Positions 9,437 to 50,149 are shown, counted from the first letter of the stretch. The stretch is 64,000 bases of DNA from Alphaproteobacteria bacterium (GCA_965229935.1 CBDDKB010000002.1:772165-836164), one strand, 5' to 3'. Translations and numbers: made by a program. The notes: generated by a model not told the origin, from the letters alone.

Positions 9437-10447
9437 TTAGAAGGCTGCCTGCAGCCCGATGGTCAGCATATCATCCATCTTTAGCTGCGGGCCGTTCAGG
9501 TCCTGATAGACGGTCTTTTCATACTCAACCGCGATGCGGTGGCCTTTCAGAGCAGTGCCGGGGATCACATAGTTGAGGCCAATACCAAGATCGACCCATT
9601 CGCCGCCATGATTGTCGGGGTCCGTGGTCGGTGCGGGACGAGCCAGAATTTTCCTGTCTGCACCATGAACGGCGCCGGCTGATCGGCCTGTAACGCGACC
9701 TGTCACTGAAATAGACTCTGACAGCAGATGATTGACATAACCTGTCAGCTTGACCCTATTGCCAAGGCGGTAATCATTGTCGTTGGTCCCGGTACGGAAG
9801 ACCGTATCAAGCTGGGCGCCAAACTTGGTGTTGGGCCCTGTTATGTCCAAAAAGTCGGTCCAAGTTACACCGGCAAGAATGTCATAGGTGCCGGAGCCGA
9901 GCTGCATCGGGTAGGGCAAGTGACCGGGGATTGTGTCTTTCTCATCAATAGACCCGGTGGGAAGTGACACGCCGATTTTTAGATGCGCGGTGTCTGTCAG
10001 CTTTTGCAGGCCCGTTACTTTAACGTCGCCCCAGCCCTTTGACTTGGCAACGAACACAGTCCCGTTTGGGCGCTGATGATCCATGCTGTTTTCCAAATAA
10101 GGTGCCATGACCATCAATGTCAGATCATTAGACCAACCATACATCATGCCGAACATGTGCATGTCTGTTGTCATTCTTAACGGTACAACGGGGAAGCCAA
10201 AATTTGTACGTACCGACGCGGGGCTAAGATCTGTTGTGCCGTTGCGATTGTCTTCCATCTCCATCCGCATAAAACGGTAAGAGACCATCCATTGTCCTTC
10301 ACCGTGGCGGTGATCACCCATGACGCCAATGGGGGCATGGCCAAGTGGGCTGGGCAGATGATCTTCATGCGCGAAGGTAGCAGATGAGAAAAGCAGTGAG
10401 AAAGCGGCGGCAGCCAGCGCTGCGCCCGTGCGAGATTTAAGAGTCAT
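9437..10447 (-). CDS. Outer-membrane beta-barrel protein with a Met/His-rich N-terminal region (CopB-like / MetA-pathway-transporter-like)
   Basis: Signal peptide (AAFSLLFSSATFA-HEDH). The mature N-terminus is rich in His/Met clusters (HEDH, GDHRHGEG, MRMEMED, DMHMFGMMYGW). Alternating beta-strand character, ending in the C-terminal ...GLQAAF typical of outer membrane barrels. Confidence 0.6.
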   Translation of the reverse strand: MTLKSRTGAALAAAAFSLLFSSATFAHEDHLPSPLGHAPIGVMGDHRHGEGQWMVSYRFMRMEMEDNRNGTTDLSPASVRTNFGFPVVPLRMTTDMHMFGMMYGWSNDLTLMVMAPYLENSMDHQRPNGTVFVAKSKGWGDVKVTGLQKLTDTAHLKIGVSLPTGSIDEKDTIPGHLPYPMQLGSGTYDILAGVTWTDFLDITGPNTKFGAQLDTVFRTGTNDNDYRLGNRVKLTGYVNHLLSESISVTGRVTGRSAGAVHGADRKILARPAPTTDPDNHGGEWVDLGIGLNYVIPGTALKGHRIAVEYEKTVYQDLNGPQLKMDDMLTIGLQAAF

Positions 10448-43583: not shown

Positions 43584-44213
43584 ATGAGTGACTCAGTAAC
43601 CAAAAAAAGCGGCGATCAGCGCCCGTTTGACAATGTGTTGGCACAGGCCCAAAGCGCGATCAAACGCCGTGGTGTGGCCCCGGTGGAAAAATGGAACCCG
43701 GATTATTGTGGCGAGATGGACATGCGTATCGCCCGCGATGGCACATGGTTTCATGAAGGCACCCCCATTGGCCGCAAGCAATTGGTGCGCCTGTTTTCAA
43801 CAGTGCTGCGCAAGGATGATGATGGCCGCCATTATCTTGTAACCCCGGTCGAGAAGATCGGCATCACCGTCGATGATGCGCCCTTTTTGGCGGTCGAAGT
43901 CGCGGTCGAAGGGGCAGGCCAAGACATGGCGCTGACTTTCCGCACCAATGTGGATGATCAGGTCACGGCAGATAAGGACCATCCGATCCGCGTTGCGATT
44001 GATCCCGATACGGGGGAACCATCGCCCTATGTGCTGGTGCGTGGACGGCTTGAGGCTAAGATTGGTCGTTCGGTTTTTTATGAATTGGTGGCGCTGGGGC
44101 ACGAACAGAGTTTCGAAGGCGGCACCCATTTCGGCCTGTGGTCGGGCGGTGTGTTTCACAGCTTTGGCGAAAAGGATGCGCTGTTCGCCGGGACCGAGAT
44201 TGTGACGGATTAG
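43584..44213 (+). CDS. DUF1285 domain protein
   Basis: 209 aa with a conserved N-terminal VEKWNPDYCGEMDMRIARDGTWFHEG. It lies upstream of the CoA pyrophosphatase gene, as is typical in alphaproteobacteria. Confidence 0.75.
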   Translation: MSDSVTKKSGDQRPFDNVLAQAQSAIKRRGVAPVEKWNPDYCGEMDMRIARDGTWFHEGTPIGRKQLVRLFSTVLRKDDDGRHYLVTPVEKIGITVDDAPFLAVEVAVEGAGQDMALTFRTNVDDQVTADKDHPIRVAIDPDTGEPSPYVLVRGRLEAKIGRSVFYELVALGHEQSFEGGTHFGLWSGGVFHSFGEKDALFAGTEIVTD

Positions 44214-44231
44214 GTCAGGTCAGGGAACGCC

Positions 44232-44888
44232 ATGCCGACACGCATCCTCACACGCGCTTATATCGAAGACCGGCTATTGGACAGAACGCCGGATCCTGAT
44301 GCGCGGTCTGACGCAGACCTGACGCCCTATTGGAATGATTTGCTGCCTAAAAATCGTGTGTTGCGCCCTGCTGCCGTGTTGGTGCCGTTGGTTGAAAGGG
44401 CGTCGGGCCTGAATGTGTTGCTGACGGAAAGGTCGGCTGATCTGCCCAGTCATGCAGGGCAGGTTGCCTTTCCTGGTGGACGCATTGACGATACGGATCA
44501 TGGTCCCGAAGCTGCGGCCCTGCGAGAGGCAGAGGAGGAGGTCGGCCTTAACCCCAACTGGACAAGTTTGGTGGGGCGGCTTGACCATTACCACACCGGC
44601 ACAGGGTTCCACATTACCCCCATCGTTGGCTTTGTTGAGCCTGCCTTCACGCTTGATGAATTGGTGCTGGAGGAGGCTGAGGTCGCAAAAGTTTTCGAAG
44701 TGCCCCTGTCCTTTTTGATGGACCCAAAAAATCATGAAAAACATGCCATCGACTATAAGGGACGGGAACGAATTTACTATGCCATGCCGTATCAGGGTCA
44801 CTATATTTGGGGGGCAACTGCTGGCATGCTGGTGAATATGAGCCATATTCTACTTGGTACCCCCACAGACAAAAGCGGAGTCGCCTGA
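44232..44888 (+). CDS. nudL: CoA pyrophosphatase (NUDIX hydrolase, NudL-like)
   Basis: Nudix box GGRIDDTDHGPEAAALREAEEEVGL. Confidence 0.8.
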   Translation: MPTRILTRAYIEDRLLDRTPDPDARSDADLTPYWNDLLPKNRVLRPAAVLVPLVERASGLNVLLTERSADLPSHAGQVAFPGGRIDDTDHGPEAAALREAEEEVGLNPNWTSLVGRLDHYHTGTGFHITPIVGFVEPAFTLDELVLEEAEVAKVFEVPLSFLMDPKNHEKHAIDYKGRERIYYAMPYQGHYIWGATAGMLVNMSHILLGTPTDKSGVA

Positions 44889-45187
44889 TGCGTCTTGTTC
44901 TGCTGAATATATTTTTGCTGCTCTTGCCCTTGGTCACCTACATGTTGTTTAGGTGGGTGCGCGGTCATAGAGATTTTACAAATCGGCCAACCGTCAGATT
45001 GCTGCTTGTTGGGTTGGTGTTGGTAATCATCAGCCTGTTATGGGTGCGGTTCAACACAGGCGCGGACCCTGATTCCGTTTATGTGCCACCGCATATGGAG
45101 GACGGTAAACTTGTCGGGCCCCATTATGTTGCCCCTGATGAACTAGGCGAGGGGGTTCATCCCGGCGACATTGTTCGCGAAGACTGA
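44888..45187 (+). CDS. Small two-TM membrane protein (hypothetical; DUF6111-like position between nudL and cca)
   Basis: The ATG at 44888 overlaps the nudL stop by 1 nt (ATGA). It encodes two hydrophobic helices. Confidence 0.5.
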   Translation: MRLVLLNIFLLLLPLVTYMLFRWVRGHRDFTNRPTVRLLLVGLVLVIISLLWVRFNTGADPDSVYVPPHMEDGKLVGPHYVAPDELGEGVHPGDIVRED

Positions 45188-45189
45188 CA

Positions 45190-46380
45190 ATGCCTCCCCC
45201 GTCATTTCCCATTGATGAACTGCGGCGCGATAATCAGCCGTTGGATCGGGTCTTGGCAGCCCTAAGCGCCAAGGGGGACGAGGTGCGCTTGGTTGGCGGT
45301 GCGGTGCGCGACCATTTGCTGGGACGATCAACATATGATGTAGACTTAGCGACGACTGCCTTGCCGGAGCAGACAATAGCTTTGTTAAATGGTGCGGGGT
45401 TGAAGCCTGTTCCTGTCGGTATTGAATTTGGCACGGTTATTGGTGTTGCGGACGGGGTGGGATTTGAAATTACAACCCTGCGCGCCGATGTTGAAACAGA
45501 TGGAAGGCACGCCAAGGTCGCCTTTTCCACAGACTGGCAGGAAGATGCCTTGCGCCGTGACCTGACAATTAATGCGTTGAGTGTCGACATGCAGGGCGTG
45601 ATCCATGATTACACCGATGGTATTGCGGATATTGCGGCACGTAGGCTGCGCTTGATCGGCACGCCAATAGACCGGCTGCATGAAGATTATCTGCGTCTGT
45701 TGCGCGTCTTCAGGTTTGCAAGCCAGTTGCCTGAAGATTTCACGATTGATGAGCAGACATTGATTGCCTGCACCCAAGCGCAAAAGGGTCTAAAACAATT
45801 ATCCGGCGAACGTGTGTTTTCAGAGCTGTCCCGCATTTTGGTGGGGCCACAGGTTCTGTCTGTGATTCAGGACATGGAAGCGCGCAGCATTTGGCAAACA
45901 TTGTTTGATCTGTCCATTGATAGTCAGGCGCTGGCTTCCCTTGTTGAACGAGAGCGGGAGCCAGATGCAGTGCGTCGCCTGATGGCTTGTTTCGGTGCAT
46001 CGGAAGCTGCAAATATTTTAAGCGCGCTTAATGCGCCGGGAAAAGAACGCGCCCGTGCTTCATCTGTCGCCGCATTGTTGCGTCCCGGTGCGCTTGACGA
46101 CGAACGCACAATTGTGCGCCGCATTTGGAAAGATGGTGTGCAGCCTGCGATTGATGCCGCGTTGCTTTCCGGGCGCGAAGTGCTTTTGGCCAGAATTGCA
46201 GACCTCGCCACAAAGTCCTTTCCTGTGCAGGGGCGGGATGTGCTGTCACGGGGCGTTGCGCCGGGGCCTGATGTGGGGCGTCTATTGGCGGTGCTTGAAG
46301 ACTGGTGGTTCGATCATGACATGCCTGACCGTGAGGAAAGCCTTGTGCAGCTTGAAAAGCTAATAGTTGCTCATCACTAA
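45190..46380 (+). CDS. cca: CCA tRNA nucleotidyltransferase (poly(A) polymerase family)
   Basis: The head-domain motif GGAVRD...DVDL and an overall length of about 396 aa. Confidence 0.8.
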   Translation: MPPPSFPIDELRRDNQPLDRVLAALSAKGDEVRLVGGAVRDHLLGRSTYDVDLATTALPEQTIALLNGAGLKPVPVGIEFGTVIGVADGVGFEITTLRADVETDGRHAKVAFSTDWQEDALRRDLTINALSVDMQGVIHDYTDGIADIAARRLRLIGTPIDRLHEDYLRLLRVFRFASQLPEDFTIDEQTLIACTQAQKGLKQLSGERVFSELSRILVGPQVLSVIQDMEARSIWQTLFDLSIDSQALASLVEREREPDAVRRLMACFGASEAANILSALNAPGKERARASSVAALLRPGALDDERTIVRRIWKDGVQPAIDAALLSGREVLLARIADLATKSFPVQGRDVLSRGVAPGPDVGRLLAVLEDWWFDHDMPDREESLVQLEKLIVAHH

Positions 46381-46468
46381 GTTAAAAGAGGGACGTGCAA
46401 TTTCGTGTCTTTTGTGCTTTATTCCATTGCTTAATAGATTGGCATAAATCGCGCGAGACAGATAAAAA

Positions 46469-48112
46469 TTGATCAGGTTTCATGGGCCACAGGCAACCCA
46501 TCTACGTCGTGATGGTTTGATTGGCGATTGGAAGTTAAAACGAACTTCCGAAACGACGAAGGCAATGACATTCCTAGATACGTTTGACTGGCGGTTGCAC
46601 AAGCGCGGGATGGAGCTTTGTGTCATCCAGCAAAAGGGTAAGGCCCGTTCAATTGCGCTGGTTAACAGCGAGGGGCATGAGCTTGTTGCGCGCTTACCCG
46701 GACGCCGTCTGCCGAGTTGGGCAGATGAGCTGTCGGGTGATGGTGGCGACGCGGCAATGATGATTGCAGCACAAGTTGCAGCGGGCATAAAGCGCCGCGC
46801 TTTGTTGCCGATGGGCAAGGTTCAATTGAAGCAAACGCAAATTGCATTGCTTGACGATCTTGAAAAGACCATCGCTCATATCTCTATCGCGACGCCTATT
46901 CACGACAATGGCTTGCCCGCAACACAATCAGCCGCGGCGGGAATCAAACCGCTGCGAGGGTATGAGGATGAAGTGCGCGCCTTCTTAAAGGCAGCAGACA
47001 TCGATATAGATGACGATGTAGGGCAGCCGGACTTGCTGACGCTTGCTGCCCAGCAAGTTGGCCGCGCGCCCCTTGACTATCAATCAAAAATCAATGTGCC
47101 AATGGTCGCCGATGACGATGCACGGACCGCAGCCTTAAAAACGTTGCGATCATTGATGGCGGTGCTTGAACAGAATATCAATCCGGTCATTGAGGATATT
47201 GATCAGGATTTCCTGCATCACTTTCGCGTTGCCTGCCGCCGAATTCGTGAGGCTTTGTCTGTGTTTCGCAGCGCCTTTCCCGACGACCGCGTGCAACATT
47301 TCCGGCAGGAGTTTGGATGGGTTACCAAAGTCACCAATGTGACACGAGATTCAGACGTCTACCTTTTGGCGCTTGACGGCTTTCGTGAACAATTGACCGA
47401 GGGGTTGGCTGATGGTCTTGACCCGTTTGAAACGTGGCTACGCCGTCGGCGCAGCTCCTCCCTTGGTGCTGTGCGTCGTGCATTGCGCAGTGATCGTTTC
47501 CAGACTTTGTTGGTTGAGTTTCATCGCTTTTTAGAAGAACAGGAAGCTGCAGCGCTGACTGAAGGCGCAGCCCGACCTGCAAAGCAATTGGGCGACAAGC
47601 GGATTTGGAAAATTTTTCGGCGCATGTATGCAGGCTCCCGCGCGCTGACAGATGCCTCACCTGAAGATGATGTCCATGACATTCGCAAGCTTGGTAAAAA
47701 GCTGCGCTATGGTCTGGAATATTTTAAGACCCTATATGAGCCTGATGACATTGGTGCTGTCATAACAGAGTTAAAGGCACTGCAAGCAGTGCTTGGTGAT
47801 TTCAATGATTATTGTGTGCAGTCCCATGATCTTGAACAATTTGCCAAGCTGATTGCCGCGGGGCAGGCAAGCGACGTGCCCCCCCAAACGCTGCTGACGC
47901 TGGGGGCGCTGATTGATATTTTGAATAAACAGCGCGCCGAAGCGCGCATTCAATGCGATGTTGCCTTTGAACAGTTTGCGTCTGAAGCGAACCGAAAAGC
48001 CTATCGCAAACTATTTCGGAATAAGGCCGAAGATATTGAGCCGCTGGCTTTAGATGTATCTGCTGAAGAGCAGTCGCTGGCGGCCCAAGAAACAACGGAT
48101 CAAGCGCAATGA
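46469..48112 (+). CDS. CHAD domain protein with a degenerate N-terminal CYTH-like region
   Basis: CHAD signatures HFRVACRRIREAL and HDIRKLGKKLRYGLEYF. The N-terminus has a CYTH-like FLDTFDWRLHKRG, but the EXEXK strand is replaced by DWKLK. The ORF-track start is a TTG at 46469; the first in-frame ATG is at 46565 and has an SD. Confidence 0.75.
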   Translation: MIRFHGPQATHLRRDGLIGDWKLKRTSETTKAMTFLDTFDWRLHKRGMELCVIQQKGKARSIALVNSEGHELVARLPGRRLPSWADELSGDGGDAAMMIAAQVAAGIKRRALLPMGKVQLKQTQIALLDDLEKTIAHISIATPIHDNGLPATQSAAAGIKPLRGYEDEVRAFLKAADIDIDDDVGQPDLLTLAAQQVGRAPLDYQSKINVPMVADDDARTAALKTLRSLMAVLEQNINPVIEDIDQDFLHHFRVACRRIREALSVFRSAFPDDRVQHFRQEFGWVTKVTNVTRDSDVYLLALDGFREQLTEGLADGLDPFETWLRRRRSSSLGAVRRALRSDRFQTLLVEFHRFLEEQEAAALTEGAARPAKQLGDKRIWKIFRRMYAGSRALTDASPEDDVHDIRKLGKKLRYGLEYFKTLYEPDDIGAVITELKALQAVLGDFNDYCVQSHDLEQFAKLIAAGQASDVPPQTLLTLGALIDILNKQRAEARIQCDVAFEQFASEANRKAYRKLFRNKAEDIEPLALDVSAEEQSLAAQETTDQAQ

Positions 48113-48855
48113 AAATTCTTGCAGTCTATAATATCAAGGGCGGCGTCGGCAAAACCGCTGCGGCAGTGAACCTTGCCTGCCTTGCCGCGCAGTCCGGGCA
48201 GCGTGTCCTGTTGTGGGACTTGGACCCGCAAGGGGCGGCAAGCTATTATTTTCGGGTCAAGCCTAAGGTTAAGGGCGGCATTAGCCGTTTGCTCCGTGGC
48301 GGTAATGGCATTGCCAAGCGGGTGAAGGAAACCGATTATCCCGGGCTTGATCTATTGCCGGCTGATTTTTCCTATCGTCATTTCGATATAATGATCGATA
48401 AGAAAAAGCCGCATCGCACGTTGCGGCAGGCGTTGGCAGCGTTCAAGAAGTCCTATGACCTGATTATTATTGATTGTCCGCCTTCAATCTCGCGCCTGTC
48501 AGAAGGTCTGTTTACTTTTGCCGACGCATTGATCGTGCCAACAATTCCAACCACACTGTCTGTGCGGACGCTCGAACAATTAACTGAGTTCCATAAAGAT
48601 AATGACCTGTCTGCAAAGCGTATCTGGCCGGTTCTGTCCATGGTTGATAAACGCCGTGTGTTGCACAAGCAGTTGGGACATGATCTGTCGCGCAGTTATA
48701 AACGCTGTTTTGAAACCGCTATTCCCTACACGGCAGATGTTGAGATGATGGGGATCAAGCGTCGCCCCGTTGTCGATTTTGCGCCGCGTTCGGGCGCGGC
48801 AAAGGCCTATACTGCGCTTTGGGGCGAAGTGGCAGAGCGATTGCGCAAAATCTGA
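48109..48855 (+). CDS. Orphan ParA/MinD-type P-loop ATPase
   Basis: Deviant Walker A KGGVGKT with the signature lysine; 248 aa with no HTH. Its start has an ATGA overlap with the CHAD gene stop. Confidence 0.85.
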   Translation: MKILAVYNIKGGVGKTAAAVNLACLAAQSGQRVLLWDLDPQGAASYYFRVKPKVKGGISRLLRGGNGIAKRVKETDYPGLDLLPADFSYRHFDIMIDKKKPHRTLRQALAAFKKSYDLIIIDCPPSISRLSEGLFTFADALIVPTIPTTLSVRTLEQLTEFHKDNDLSAKRIWPVLSMVDKRRVLHKQLGHDLSRSYKRCFETAIPYTADVEMMGIKRRPVVDFAPRSGAAKAYTALWGEVAERLRKI

Positions 48856-48874
48856 TTCAGGCAGATAATGGGGT

Positions 48875-50149
48875 ATGTCGGATACAGACTTACTCATAAG
48901 GCTAACCGTTTCCCTTGCCGTTGGTATTTTGGTCGGGGTAGAGCGTGGTTGGCATGAACGGCACCGCAATGCGGGCGAACGTATTGCAGGCATCCGAACA
49001 TTTACATTGATCGGTTTTTTGGGCGGGTTGCTGACTGGCCTTCCTGTTTTTATGCCTTGGGGGTTTATTGCCGGGTTTGTGGCGATAGCCGTGTTAATGT
49101 CGCTTGGCTGGTATAAATATAGCGGCACTCAAACTGGCATTGGCGTTACCACAGTCATTGCTGTGTTGGTGACTTACGTATTGGGCGGCTTGGCCGGGCA
49201 GGGTGAGATAATTGCAGCAGGTGCCGGGGCGGTGGTCACAGCCTTGTTGCTTTATTTCAAGCCCAGCTTGCATACATGGCTGGAACAGATCCGCGATGTA
49301 GACATAAATGCGGGGCTTCGATTGCTGGCAATATCAGTATTGTTGTTGCCAATTTTGCCTGATCATGGCTACGGCCCATGGCAAGTGCTCAACCCCTTTC
49401 ACATTTGGATTATGGTTGTTGCTATCGCAGGGCTGTCATTTTTTGGCTATGTCCTGATCCGTCTGTTTGGCGCGCGGCGGGGCATCTTGTTTGCAGCGCT
49501 TGCTGGCGGATTTGTTTCCTCTACGGCGGTGACCATTTCCTTTTCCAAACAAAGTTGTGAGGCGACAGGGGCAGGGCGCACCTATATGGCGGGCATATTG
49601 CTCGCCAATTTGATCGTGTTTCCGCGCATGTTGTTGATTGCGGGTGTCATTGCGCCAACAATATTACCAGTCTTGGTCCCAGCGATGGGGGCGGCTGTTA
49701 TTGTTGGGCTCGCCCTCGCAGCGCTTTTGTTGCGCAGGCAAGAAAGCGATATAGCCGATGCAGCGGATATCGCTACATCAATAACTAATCCCCTTCAGTT
49801 GCGTACGGCATTGAGTTTCGGTCTGTTGCTGAGTTTGATTTTGCTTGCCACTCGTGCGGCATCAGAGTTTGCAGGAACAGGAGGTATTTATGGGCTGGCC
49901 TTGTTGTCAGGCTTTGCCGACGTTGATCCGATCAGCCTGTCCCTTGCAACGCAAGTCGCTGGCGATGTCATTAACGCAAAAGTTGCAGCAACAGGTGTCG
50001 CGTTGGCAGTCACTGCAAATTTGATCGTCAAGGGTGCTTTGGCTATCCGATTGGCTGACCAATCCCTTAAGGGCCGCTTGGGCCAAATGTTTGCCCTGTT
50101 TGTCGTGGCTGTATTAGCCGGGCTTGGTGCCGGCCTTTGGATTATTTAG
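48875..50149 (+). CDS. MgtC-family N-terminal domain fused to DUF4010 (integral membrane protein)
   Basis: MgtC-like N-terminus (LAVGILVGVERGWHER...GIRTFTLIG) followed by eight or more further TM helices typical of DUF4010. Confidence 0.75.
   Translation: MSDTDLLIRLTVSLAVGILVGVERGWHERHRNAGERIAGIRTFTLIGFLGGLLTGLPVFMPWGFIAGFVAIAVLMSLGWYKYSGTQTGIGVTTVIAVLVTYVLGGLAGQGEIIAAGAGAVVTALLLYFKPSLHTWLEQIRDVDINAGLRLLAISVLLLPILPDHGYGPWQVLNPFHIWIMVVAIAGLSFFGYVLIRLFGARRGILFAALAGGFVSSTAVTISFSKQSCEATGAGRTYMAGILLANLIVFPRMLLIAGVIAPTILPVLVPAMGAAVIVGLALAALLLRRQESDIADAADIATSITNPLQLRTALSFGLLLSLILLATRAASEFAGTGGIYGLALLSGFADVDPISLSLATQVAGDVINAKVAATGVALAVTANLIVKGALAIRLADQSLKGRLGQMFALFVVAVLAGLGAGLWII

Follow-up and report, generated by a model that had tools for sequence, protein, structure and literature searches.

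Polyphosphate (polyP) granules are evenly spaced or lie at defined positions in several bacteria, and in the papers of 2025–2026 that describe them (PMC13081873 among them) the mechanism of granule placement is undefined outside AlgP in Pseudomonas. The CHAD proteins, also called phosins, have no function known beyond attachment to the granules (PMC13081873 among the sources). A review of the ParA/MinD ATPases and a study of their multiple cargoes name no polyP cargo. Here we analyse a gene pair that may join these subjects. In a stretch of 64,000 nucleotides from an alphaproteobacterium (GCA_965229935.1, CBDDKB010000002.1:772165-836164; the whole stretch is called the window), a gene for a CHAD protein overlaps the gene for a ParA-like ATPase, and a gene for an MgtC/DUF4010 membrane protein follows. 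The original prediction, made from this sequence, took all three for a candidate module that positions polyP granules. We propose that the first two are a cassette of a cargo adaptor and a ParA-type ATPase dedicated to polyP granules, and give this reading a probability of about 55%.

One earlier mention of the neighbourhood of the two families was found. In a paper of 2024, 'folD, ppk, parA and CHAD' are given as conserved neighbours in Acidithiobacillus, and the ParA is read there as a plasmid-partition protein, without functional link to CHAD (PMC10892726). Apart from this mention, no paper was found in the literature searched that describes a CHAD-coupled ParA as a system, as the original prediction had supposed, and none on a ParA acting on polyP granules; an early passing mention in the older CHAD papers is possible.

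One line of evidence for the reading is gene order. A scan with the ParA alignment, in which one genome per species was taken, gave 80 loci with 48-56% identity. They span Gamma-, Beta- and Alphaproteobacteria, Trichloromonas and Desulfobulbaceae, the Actinomycetota (Acidimicrobiales, Streptosporangiaceae, Thermoleophilaceae and Solirubrobacter) as well as Acidobacteriota, Planctomycetota and Victivallales, while the Chlorobiota loci come from a separate look-up outside the genome scan. The genome count took in the 73 loci whose upstream sequence measured 1.5 kb or more; a long CHAD gene lies directly upstream of ParA and on the same strand in 60 of them. Seen from the other gene, ParA (43-57% identity) stands directly downstream in 54 of the 70 metagenome loci that hold a long CHAD gene with sufficient downstream sequence. 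Since the pairing recurs at these frequencies in both collections, it is far beyond chance. The junction is kept as well: a 4-nt overlap, ATGA or GTGA, was observed at 46 of 66 CHAD-ParA junctions, and TGATG at 3 more. The pair is present in cultured Chlorobaculum tepidum, Paracoccus, Halomonas, Acidithiobacillus, Nitrosomonas and Sedimenticola. Three Halomonas loci (L046:10746-11714, L055:10760-11713 and L057:10939-11979) combine the two families differently: a short CHAD gene (~320 aa) without the TTM-like N-terminal domain is convergent with ParA and located 3' of it. Taken together, these sequences show that CHAD and ParA form a conserved, translationally coupled two-gene cassette across phyla. 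In the window, the stop codon of CHAD and the start codon of ParA overlap by 4 nt (Table 1). The bases thus bear out the ATGA overlap of the original prediction, and the translational coupling read from it finds its counterpart across phyla. For the gene order CHAD-ParA-MgtC, whose conservation was in question, the answer is divided: the first two genes stay together and the third one does not accompany them (see below).

A second line of evidence links the CHAD protein of the window with proven polyP binding. The affinity of CHAD domains for polyP is nanomolar to micromolar, and nucleic acids are not bound (PMC6537752). The structure of CtCHAD, from Chlorobium tepidum, was solved with polyP bound, and contacts of H253, R256, R260, R296 and R418/Y419 with the polymer were demonstrated by mutation (PMC6537752). 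The crystallised construct comprises residues 208-522 of Q8KE09 (PMC6537752), and therefore the full C. tepidum protein shares the two-domain build of the window protein. In the latter, Pfam CHAD (PF05235; cut-off 25.6 bits) matches aa 226-453 with 180 bits. Both CHAD motifs quoted in the original prediction were located in the translation, HFRVACRRIRE at aa 251-261 and HDIRKLGKKLRYGLEYF at aa 403-419. The profile of the family matched CtCHAD (PDB 3e0s/6qv7) with E ~1e-91, and the helical part of the AlphaFold model was superimposed by Foldseek on the CtCHAD-polyP complex 6qva with a TMt of 0.91 and a root-mean-square deviation of 2.4 Å. In pairwise alignment to the C. tepidum protein (P0243), H250, R253, R257, R293 and R413/Y414 of the window protein fall on the contact residues; R413 is near-invariant in the family columns and the other five are invariant. 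CtCHAD thus belongs to the same protein family, and the window protein probably binds polyP via its CHAD domain. A Chlorobaculum CHAD protein (L168) which is 98% identical to the crystallised one is encoded in the order ppk1, hypothetical gene, CHAD and ParA. At further loci, too, the pair lies in clusters of polyP genes (Table 1), and this recurrent context speaks for a link of the cassette with polyP.

The family extends beyond the CHAD domain. Thirty-eight homologues of 480-582 aa, 26-32% identical to the window protein, align near full length including the ~200 N-terminal residues. The AlphaFold model built on the homologue alignment (pLDDT 89.4, pTM 0.86) consists of a beta-rich N-domain (aa 2-161) with nine predicted strands, a linker and the long helical domain. 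Foldseek matched the N-domain to the triphosphate tunnel metalloenzymes (TTM) 3sy3, 5a65, 7nsa, 2aca and 3n0z of the PDB with probability 1.0 and TMt of 0.37-0.54 (about 0.5 for the first three); the whole chain matched E. coli YgiF (5a60), a TTM-CHAD enzyme. Pfam CYTH gave no match in the protein at E<=0.1, and across 39 homologues the N-domain holds neither an ExExK motif nor an invariant or near-invariant Glu; D37, D40, R110 and K133 are its only charged residues of that degree of conservation. By model and alignment, the N-domain is thus a TTM fold devoid of ExExK and of the metal-binding residues, and it is a candidate for contact with ParA or for regulation. The degenerate CYTH segment of the original prediction stands as regards the loss of the motif. 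The strand named for it was probably the wrong one: in the alignment and the model the place of ExExK in CYTH enzymes corresponds to residues 2-5 (IRFH) of the first strand, while DWKLK (20-24) is at the beginning of the next long strand. The protein ends in an acidic tail, EDIEPLALDVSAEEQSLAAQETTDQAQ, which is modelled with low confidence; the tail is without counterpart in most homologues, and similar short acidic tails were found in few (P0140 and P0196).

The N-terminal strands also bear on the start codon. An in-frame TAA stands one codon 5' of the TTG with which the CHAD gene is taken to begin, and the only in-frame starts are this TTG, a second TTG at codon 17 and an ATG at codon 33. 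The TTG at codon 1 is favoured because homologues have ~35 residues ahead of the LDTFDWRL motif, because residues 2-37 form part of the N-domain strands in the AlphaFold model (pLDDT 76-94), and because a public gene call (P0121) also gives 547 aa. The TTG and the internal ATG of the original prediction are both in frame; the second TTG has to be added to them.

The partner of the CHAD protein is a ParA/MinD-superfamily ATPase of 248 aa that scores 122.7 bits with Pfam AAA_31 (cut-off 27) and 55.2 bits with CbiA and lacks an N-terminal helix-turn-helix (HTH), as had been predicted. Homologues of the same length with 53-60% identity occur in many phyla. Forty-one members of its family are of nearly equal length and 52-59% identical to the window ParA. 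The residues K10-G-G-V-G-K15-T16, D37/D39 (Walker A') and D122 (Walker B) are invariant in all of these 41, and the protein appears to be a competent ATPase. The family has signatures of its own, YNIKGGVGKT, FRxKPKxKGG, LLPADFSYR, PTTLSxRT, MVDRRKxLH and IPYxSDVExMG, and is a distinct, highly conserved, CHAD-associated subfamily. None of the NCBIfam models reached its cut-off with the window ParA. The candidate MinD was rejected (minD_bact 41.5 bits against 212.9; the C-terminus after the LWxE motif is unconserved), and so was BcsQ, a name given to homologues by some sources (TIGR03371, 76 against 157.85 bits); bcs families were absent among those listed for the ParA neighbours.

With the closest solved structures being chromosomal ParA/Soj (Myxococcus xanthus ParA 8ray and Thermus thermophilus Soj 1wcv, ~33% identity), and with the electronically inferred Gene Ontology term 'chromosome segregation' on a RefSeq homologue, one may ask whether ParA is an ordinary DNA-partition ATPase and the CHAD adjacency incidental. 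Nevertheless, the scores fall short of the partition models (ParA_partition 89.8 vs cut-off 180, RepA 78.3 vs 348, SopA 48.7 vs 725 bits). Within the 64-kb window, no ParB box II motif was found in any frame and no second protein with a deviant Walker A, and the number of parS-like matches, 4 where 1.66 are expected, does not rise above chance; each of the 4 has 3 mismatches. Among 72,556 plasmids, ~9 carry a homologue at the level of the family; most of these are large replicons of Paracoccus, and the plasmid ParA of P. aestuarii p296221 again adjoins CHAD. Moreover, adjacency and overlap with CHAD are kept across phyla. The partition reading is already contradicted by these comparative data and we hold it for improbable in the extreme. 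The orphan status assigned to ParA in the original prediction is retained by the same search, the neighbours in the window being CHAD and MgtC.

For the CHAD-ParA cassette, the following course of events may be envisaged. The basic pore and patches conserved in the long CHAD domain would bind polyP and so bring the protein to the granule surface. ParA would dimerise on ATP, and the ATP dimer would bind an extended matrix, most probably the nucleoid by analogy to ParA/ParB and McdA/McdB. The solved structures closest to ParA are indeed of nucleoid-binding ParA/Soj, and its arginine aligned with TtSoj R182/BsSoj R189 is invariant. The granule-bound CHAD protein would contact ParA, probably via the catalytically dead TTM-like N-domain, and the contact would trigger ATP hydrolysis and release of ParA. 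The resulting ParA depletion zones would set the spacing of the granules and their distribution to daughter cells, while the 4-nt stop/start overlap would keep the two proteins co-expressed. In short, the CHAD protein would be the adaptor that links granules to ParA, and ATP-driven patterning would place or partition them. ParA positioning systems are encoded beside a cargo-binding partner, and the CHAD gene occupies this place in the counts given above, with cargo binding taken from homology; the contact of ParA with the CHAD protein, the activation of ATP hydrolysis by it, the nature of the matrix and the placement of granules as the outcome are what we infer.

Several observations weigh against this scheme. 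The N-terminus of the CHAD protein is folded in the AlphaFold model and has no disordered basic peptide such as those which stimulate other ParA ATPases. Deletion of phosin-like CHAD proteins leaves granule formation largely intact in several organisms (PMC13081873). The pairing also has gaps: in 10 of the 73 genome loci no CHAD gene is adjacent, and 8 of these 10 belong to Methylococcales (L023, L025, L027, L035, L038, L041, L048 and L056; 50-53% identity, ParA at about position 10001 in most), where the neighbours of the lone ParA are D-Tyr-tRNA deacylase, glycogen phosphorylase or MgtE. Conversely, 16 of the 70 long-CHAD loci are without ParA, for example L169, a Chlorobium locus from whose arrangement it follows that a long CHAD protein can work without an ATPase encoded nearby. 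Therefore, each of the two proteins can exist without the other being encoded nearby. In L169, a 368-aa protein with sub-threshold Pfam matches only is encoded between phoU and the long CHAD gene.

A further objection comes from the surface by which Soj binds DNA. The basic contact residues are R182, R194, R208 and R211 in T. thermophilus Soj (TtSoj), equivalent to R189, K201, R215 and R218 in the Bacillus subtilis protein (BsSoj) (PMC6393308). In an alignment at ~33% identity, the equivalent of TtSoj R182 is kept in 41 of 41 members of the ParA family, and the other three are occupied by Pro/Ser, by Tyr (37 of 41) and by Asp/Glu (34 of 41), the Tyr and the Asp/Glu lying in the IPYxSDVExMG motif in place of two Soj arginines. 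Canonical nucleoid binding by ParA is doubtful because three of the four Soj contact residues are replaced in the family. Basic residues that could stand in for them are R181, K183 and those of the loop at aa 48-57, F-R-V/I-K-P-K/R-V/I-K/R-G-G.

These replacements, one of them acidic, leave room for a matrix other than DNA. ParA could bind the granule surface itself, either polyP or the CHAD coat, or it could couple the granule to the chromosome and in this way organise the nucleoid. The family has a conserved basic loop of its own, and polyP is a polyanion like DNA which influences nucleoid compaction (PMC13081873 among the papers). However, a matrix of inorganic polymer is not known for any ParA, and the invariant R182 corresponds to a Soj residue required for nucleoid binding; we consider this proposal quite unlikely. 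A related speculation, unlikely but with slightly better prospects in our estimate, is that ParA gave up its DNA patch, patterns on the polyP or CHAD surface and controls the number, fusion and inheritance of granules. If true, this would be a ParA whose matrix is neither DNA nor membrane, in a widespread ParA system dedicated to an inorganic-polymer organelle.

Another reading keeps the partnership of the two proteins and changes its purpose. Instead of being a positioning motor, ParA might serve the CHAD coat or the turnover of polyP as an ATP-dependent switch or assembly factor; it could act on nucleation, number, size or fusion of granules, or on access of PPK, PPX, CYTH or NUDIX enzymes to the polymer. 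The pair is indeed often joined by ppk1, ppk2, ppx, an ExExK-bearing CYTH, NUDIX and histidine phosphatase genes (Table 1). The context is ppk1/ppx in L003, L008, L015 and L168 and CYTH-NUDIX in L001, L003, L005, L029 and L170, and PPK2 is downstream of ParA in 3 loci. The free-standing CYTH proteins of L001, L003 and L005 carry the catalytic EIERKF, which is lacking in the CHAD N-domain. In L077 (5086-6828), directly 3' of the CHAD gene and with the usual 4-nt overlap, one open reading frame (ORF) of 580 aa fuses ParA (aa 1 to ~250) with a canonical CYTH (aa 356-571, Pfam E 5e-15). The loss of most canonical DNA-contact residues of ParA, and the dead enzyme fold of the N-domain, which is typical of regulatory pseudo-enzymes, would fit a switch as well. 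Against this, the polyP genes adjoin the pair sporadically, in a minority of loci, and CHAD alone is constant; the fusion ORF is from the contig of a metagenome-assembled genome (MAG) at 1.35x coverage, where a lost stop codon is possible; and known small ParA/MinD-type ATPases of like architecture act mainly in spatial organisation. We rate the switch as rather unlikely; together with the readings on the matrix it is the main rival to the positioning of granules by the cassette.

In a clustering of neighbours within 6 kb, no family but CHAD was present at more than 11 of the 83 loci, and among the first-downstream genes of 125 loci no Pfam family occurs more than 6 times. Other neighbours being rare, CHAD is therefore the only constant partner of ParA. 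A further conserved partner, such as a small ParB/McdB-like gene, was looked for and rejected, as the gene that follows ParA differs between loci and often lies on the opposite strand. The operon of Paracoccus aestuarii, five tightly packed genes, begins with a hypothetical gene for 62 aa (L170:4299-4487).

Table 1. Features of the window and gene order at selected loci with long CHAD genes
Feature or locus	Position	Strand	Description	Basis
CHAD gene	46469-48112	+	547 aa, TTG start	ORF and translation
N-terminal domain of CHAD protein	46469-47083	+	aa 1 to ~205; CYTH/TTM beta-barrel fold predicted, without catalytic ExExK or conserved acidic metal-binding residues	
Long CHAD domain	47075-48016	+	aa ~203-516; homologous to crystallised CtCHAD 208-522	
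Polyphosphate-contact motif	47216-47248	+	H250-x2-R253-x3-R257 (HHFRVACRRIR)	Alignment to CtCHAD
Acidic C-terminal tail of CHAD protein	48019-48109	+	aa 517-547	
Stop/start overlap	48109-48112	+	ATGA, CHAD TGA and ParA ATG	Read from bases
ParA-like ATPase gene	48109-48855	+	248 aa, ATG start	ORF and translation
Deviant Walker A	48133-48156	+	N-I-K-G-G-V-G-K-T; signature K10, catalytic K15	
Basic loop of ParA family	48250-48279	+	aa 48-57, FRxKPKxKGG	
IPYxSDVExMG motif	48718-48753	+	ParA aa 204-215	
MgtC/DUF4010 membrane-protein gene	48875-50149	+	424 aa	Pfam MgtC and DUF4010
Terminator-like hairpin	46388-46413	+	Directly 3' of CCA-adding enzyme gene	Consensus scan only
Upstream gene cluster	43584-46380		DUF1285, NUDIX, DUF6111, CCA-adding enzyme; all on the same strand	
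L003/L004, Deltaproteobacteria MAG			ppx, hypothetical gene, ppk1, CHAD, ParA, CYTH, NUDIX, histidine phosphatase, CorA	
L001, Kordiimonas			CHAD, ParA; CYTH and NUDIX on opposite strand	
L005, TARA marine contig			CHAD, ParA; CYTH and NUDIX on opposite strand	
L170, Paracoccus aestuarii p296221			62-aa hypothetical gene, CHAD, ParA, CYTH, NUDIX; 4-nt overlaps of CHAD with both neighbours	
L168, Chlorobaculum			ppk1, hypothetical gene, CHAD (98% identical to CtCHAD), ParA (45% identical to that of the window)	
L169, Chlorobium MAG	L169:1-8862		pstCAB, phoU, hypothetical gene, CHAD, ppk1; no ParA	

The third gene of the window matches Pfam MgtC with 57.6 bits and DUF4010 with 202 bits. It was correctly placed close 3' of ParA in the original prediction, and the gap was measured as 19 nt; no terminator-like site was found between the two genes in a consensus scan, and at this locus the gene is probably co-transcribed with ParA. 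Such proximity would favour a three-gene module of CHAD, ParA and MgtC/DUF4010 that, for instance, tethers granules to the membrane, as would the presence of CorA or MgtE near the pair in a few lineages (L003 for CorA, three loci including L027 and L035 for MgtE). However, a hidden Markov model search and the neighbour clustering found MgtC/DUF4010 beside ParA in 0 of 83 loci, and it is absent from the 25 most frequent Pfam families among the 125 first-downstream genes. A three-gene module across the family is contradicted already by these counts, and we regard it as very improbable. MgtC/DUF4010 is a local neighbour outside the conserved module, and the membrane partner suggested in the original prediction has to be given up.

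Genes for magnesium transport, from three unrelated families, nevertheless lie beside the pair or the lone ParA in different lineages: MgtC in the window, CorA in the deltaproteobacterial MAG (L003:8389-9300) and MgtE in three Methylococcales loci (among them L027:10840-12288 and L035:10776-12221). Granules of polyP hold divalent cations. These neighbours may be more than chance, though the counts are small.

The surroundings of the three genes are housekeeping in nature and look like part of a chromosome, probably an alphaproteobacterial one. Upstream lies the same-strand cluster from DUF1285 to the CCA-adding enzyme, and downstream of MgtC/DUF4010 follow hemF, a SpoU methylase gene and petABC. 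The hairpin after the CCA-adding enzyme gene may mark the 5' limit of the transcription unit, in a scan whose promoter and terminator counts for the region are at chance level. The NUDIX gene of this cluster is distinct from the one that comes after CYTH where the CHAD-ParA operon is extended. Genes for ppk, ppx and CYTH were not found in the 64-kb window. A defence system was also considered for the locus and dismissed, as PADLOC gave merely a weak P-loop match of 28 bits.

If the positioning reading is true, the cassette would answer the questions of granule placement and of phosin function in a testable form. The ParA/MinD family would gain a new class of cargo, an inorganic polymer condensate, and a new type of adaptor, a pseudo-enzyme fused to CHAD. 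The pair is found in the cultivable Chlorobaculum tepidum, whose CHAD domain has already been crystallised with polyP. It may also be of relevance to organisms used in biological phosphorus removal.

It remains to compare the cassette with the systems known. In Pseudomonas aeruginosa, the spacing of polyP granules depends on AlgP, a histone H1-like protein that has no ATPase activity; no ParA takes part, in contrast to the ATPase-based scheme proposed here. With ParABS, the window ParA shares ~33% full-length identity to 8ray and 1wcv, the deviant Walker A, A' and B motifs and the equivalent of TtSoj R182/BsSoj R189, but it has no ParB/parS, stays below the curated partition cut-offs, has lost three of four DNA-contact residues and has signatures of its own. 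The general plan is closest to McdA/McdB and related cargo positioning by ParA/MinD ATPases: a small HTH-less ParA-type ATPase is encoded beside the partner that binds the cargo, this cargo is a cytoplasmic body other than DNA, and the ATPase is far better conserved (53-60% here) than the partner (~30% here). Nevertheless, the cargo here would be an inorganic polymer granule, and the partner is a folded protein of TTM-like and CHAD domains and not a small disordered one such as McdB or ParB. Unlike in McdA/McdB, the partner gene comes first and overlaps by 4 nt, and Soj-type DNA-contact residues are mostly replaced; the match of the family to the McdA structure 6non is weak (E 9e-14).

On the side of the adaptor, E. 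coli YgiF (5a60) has the same order of domains, a TTM/CYTH fold followed by CHAD. However, the TTM of YgiF is active and has ExExK, and its CHAD domain is short and has no central pore (PMC6537752), whereas here the TTM-like domain is without the catalytic residues and the CHAD is of the long, pore-containing type, and the whole chains compare with a TM of 0.27-0.33. CtCHAD (Q8KE09; 3e0s, 6qv7 and 6qva) belongs to the same family, at ~26% identity to the window protein, and agrees with it in full-length architecture and in the residues that contact polyP. The CtCHAD study dealt with the CHAD fragment only and left the ATPase neighbour undiscussed, the word 'ATPase' being absent from its text (PMC6537752); behind the gene for the 98%-identical protein, too, stands a ParA of this family.

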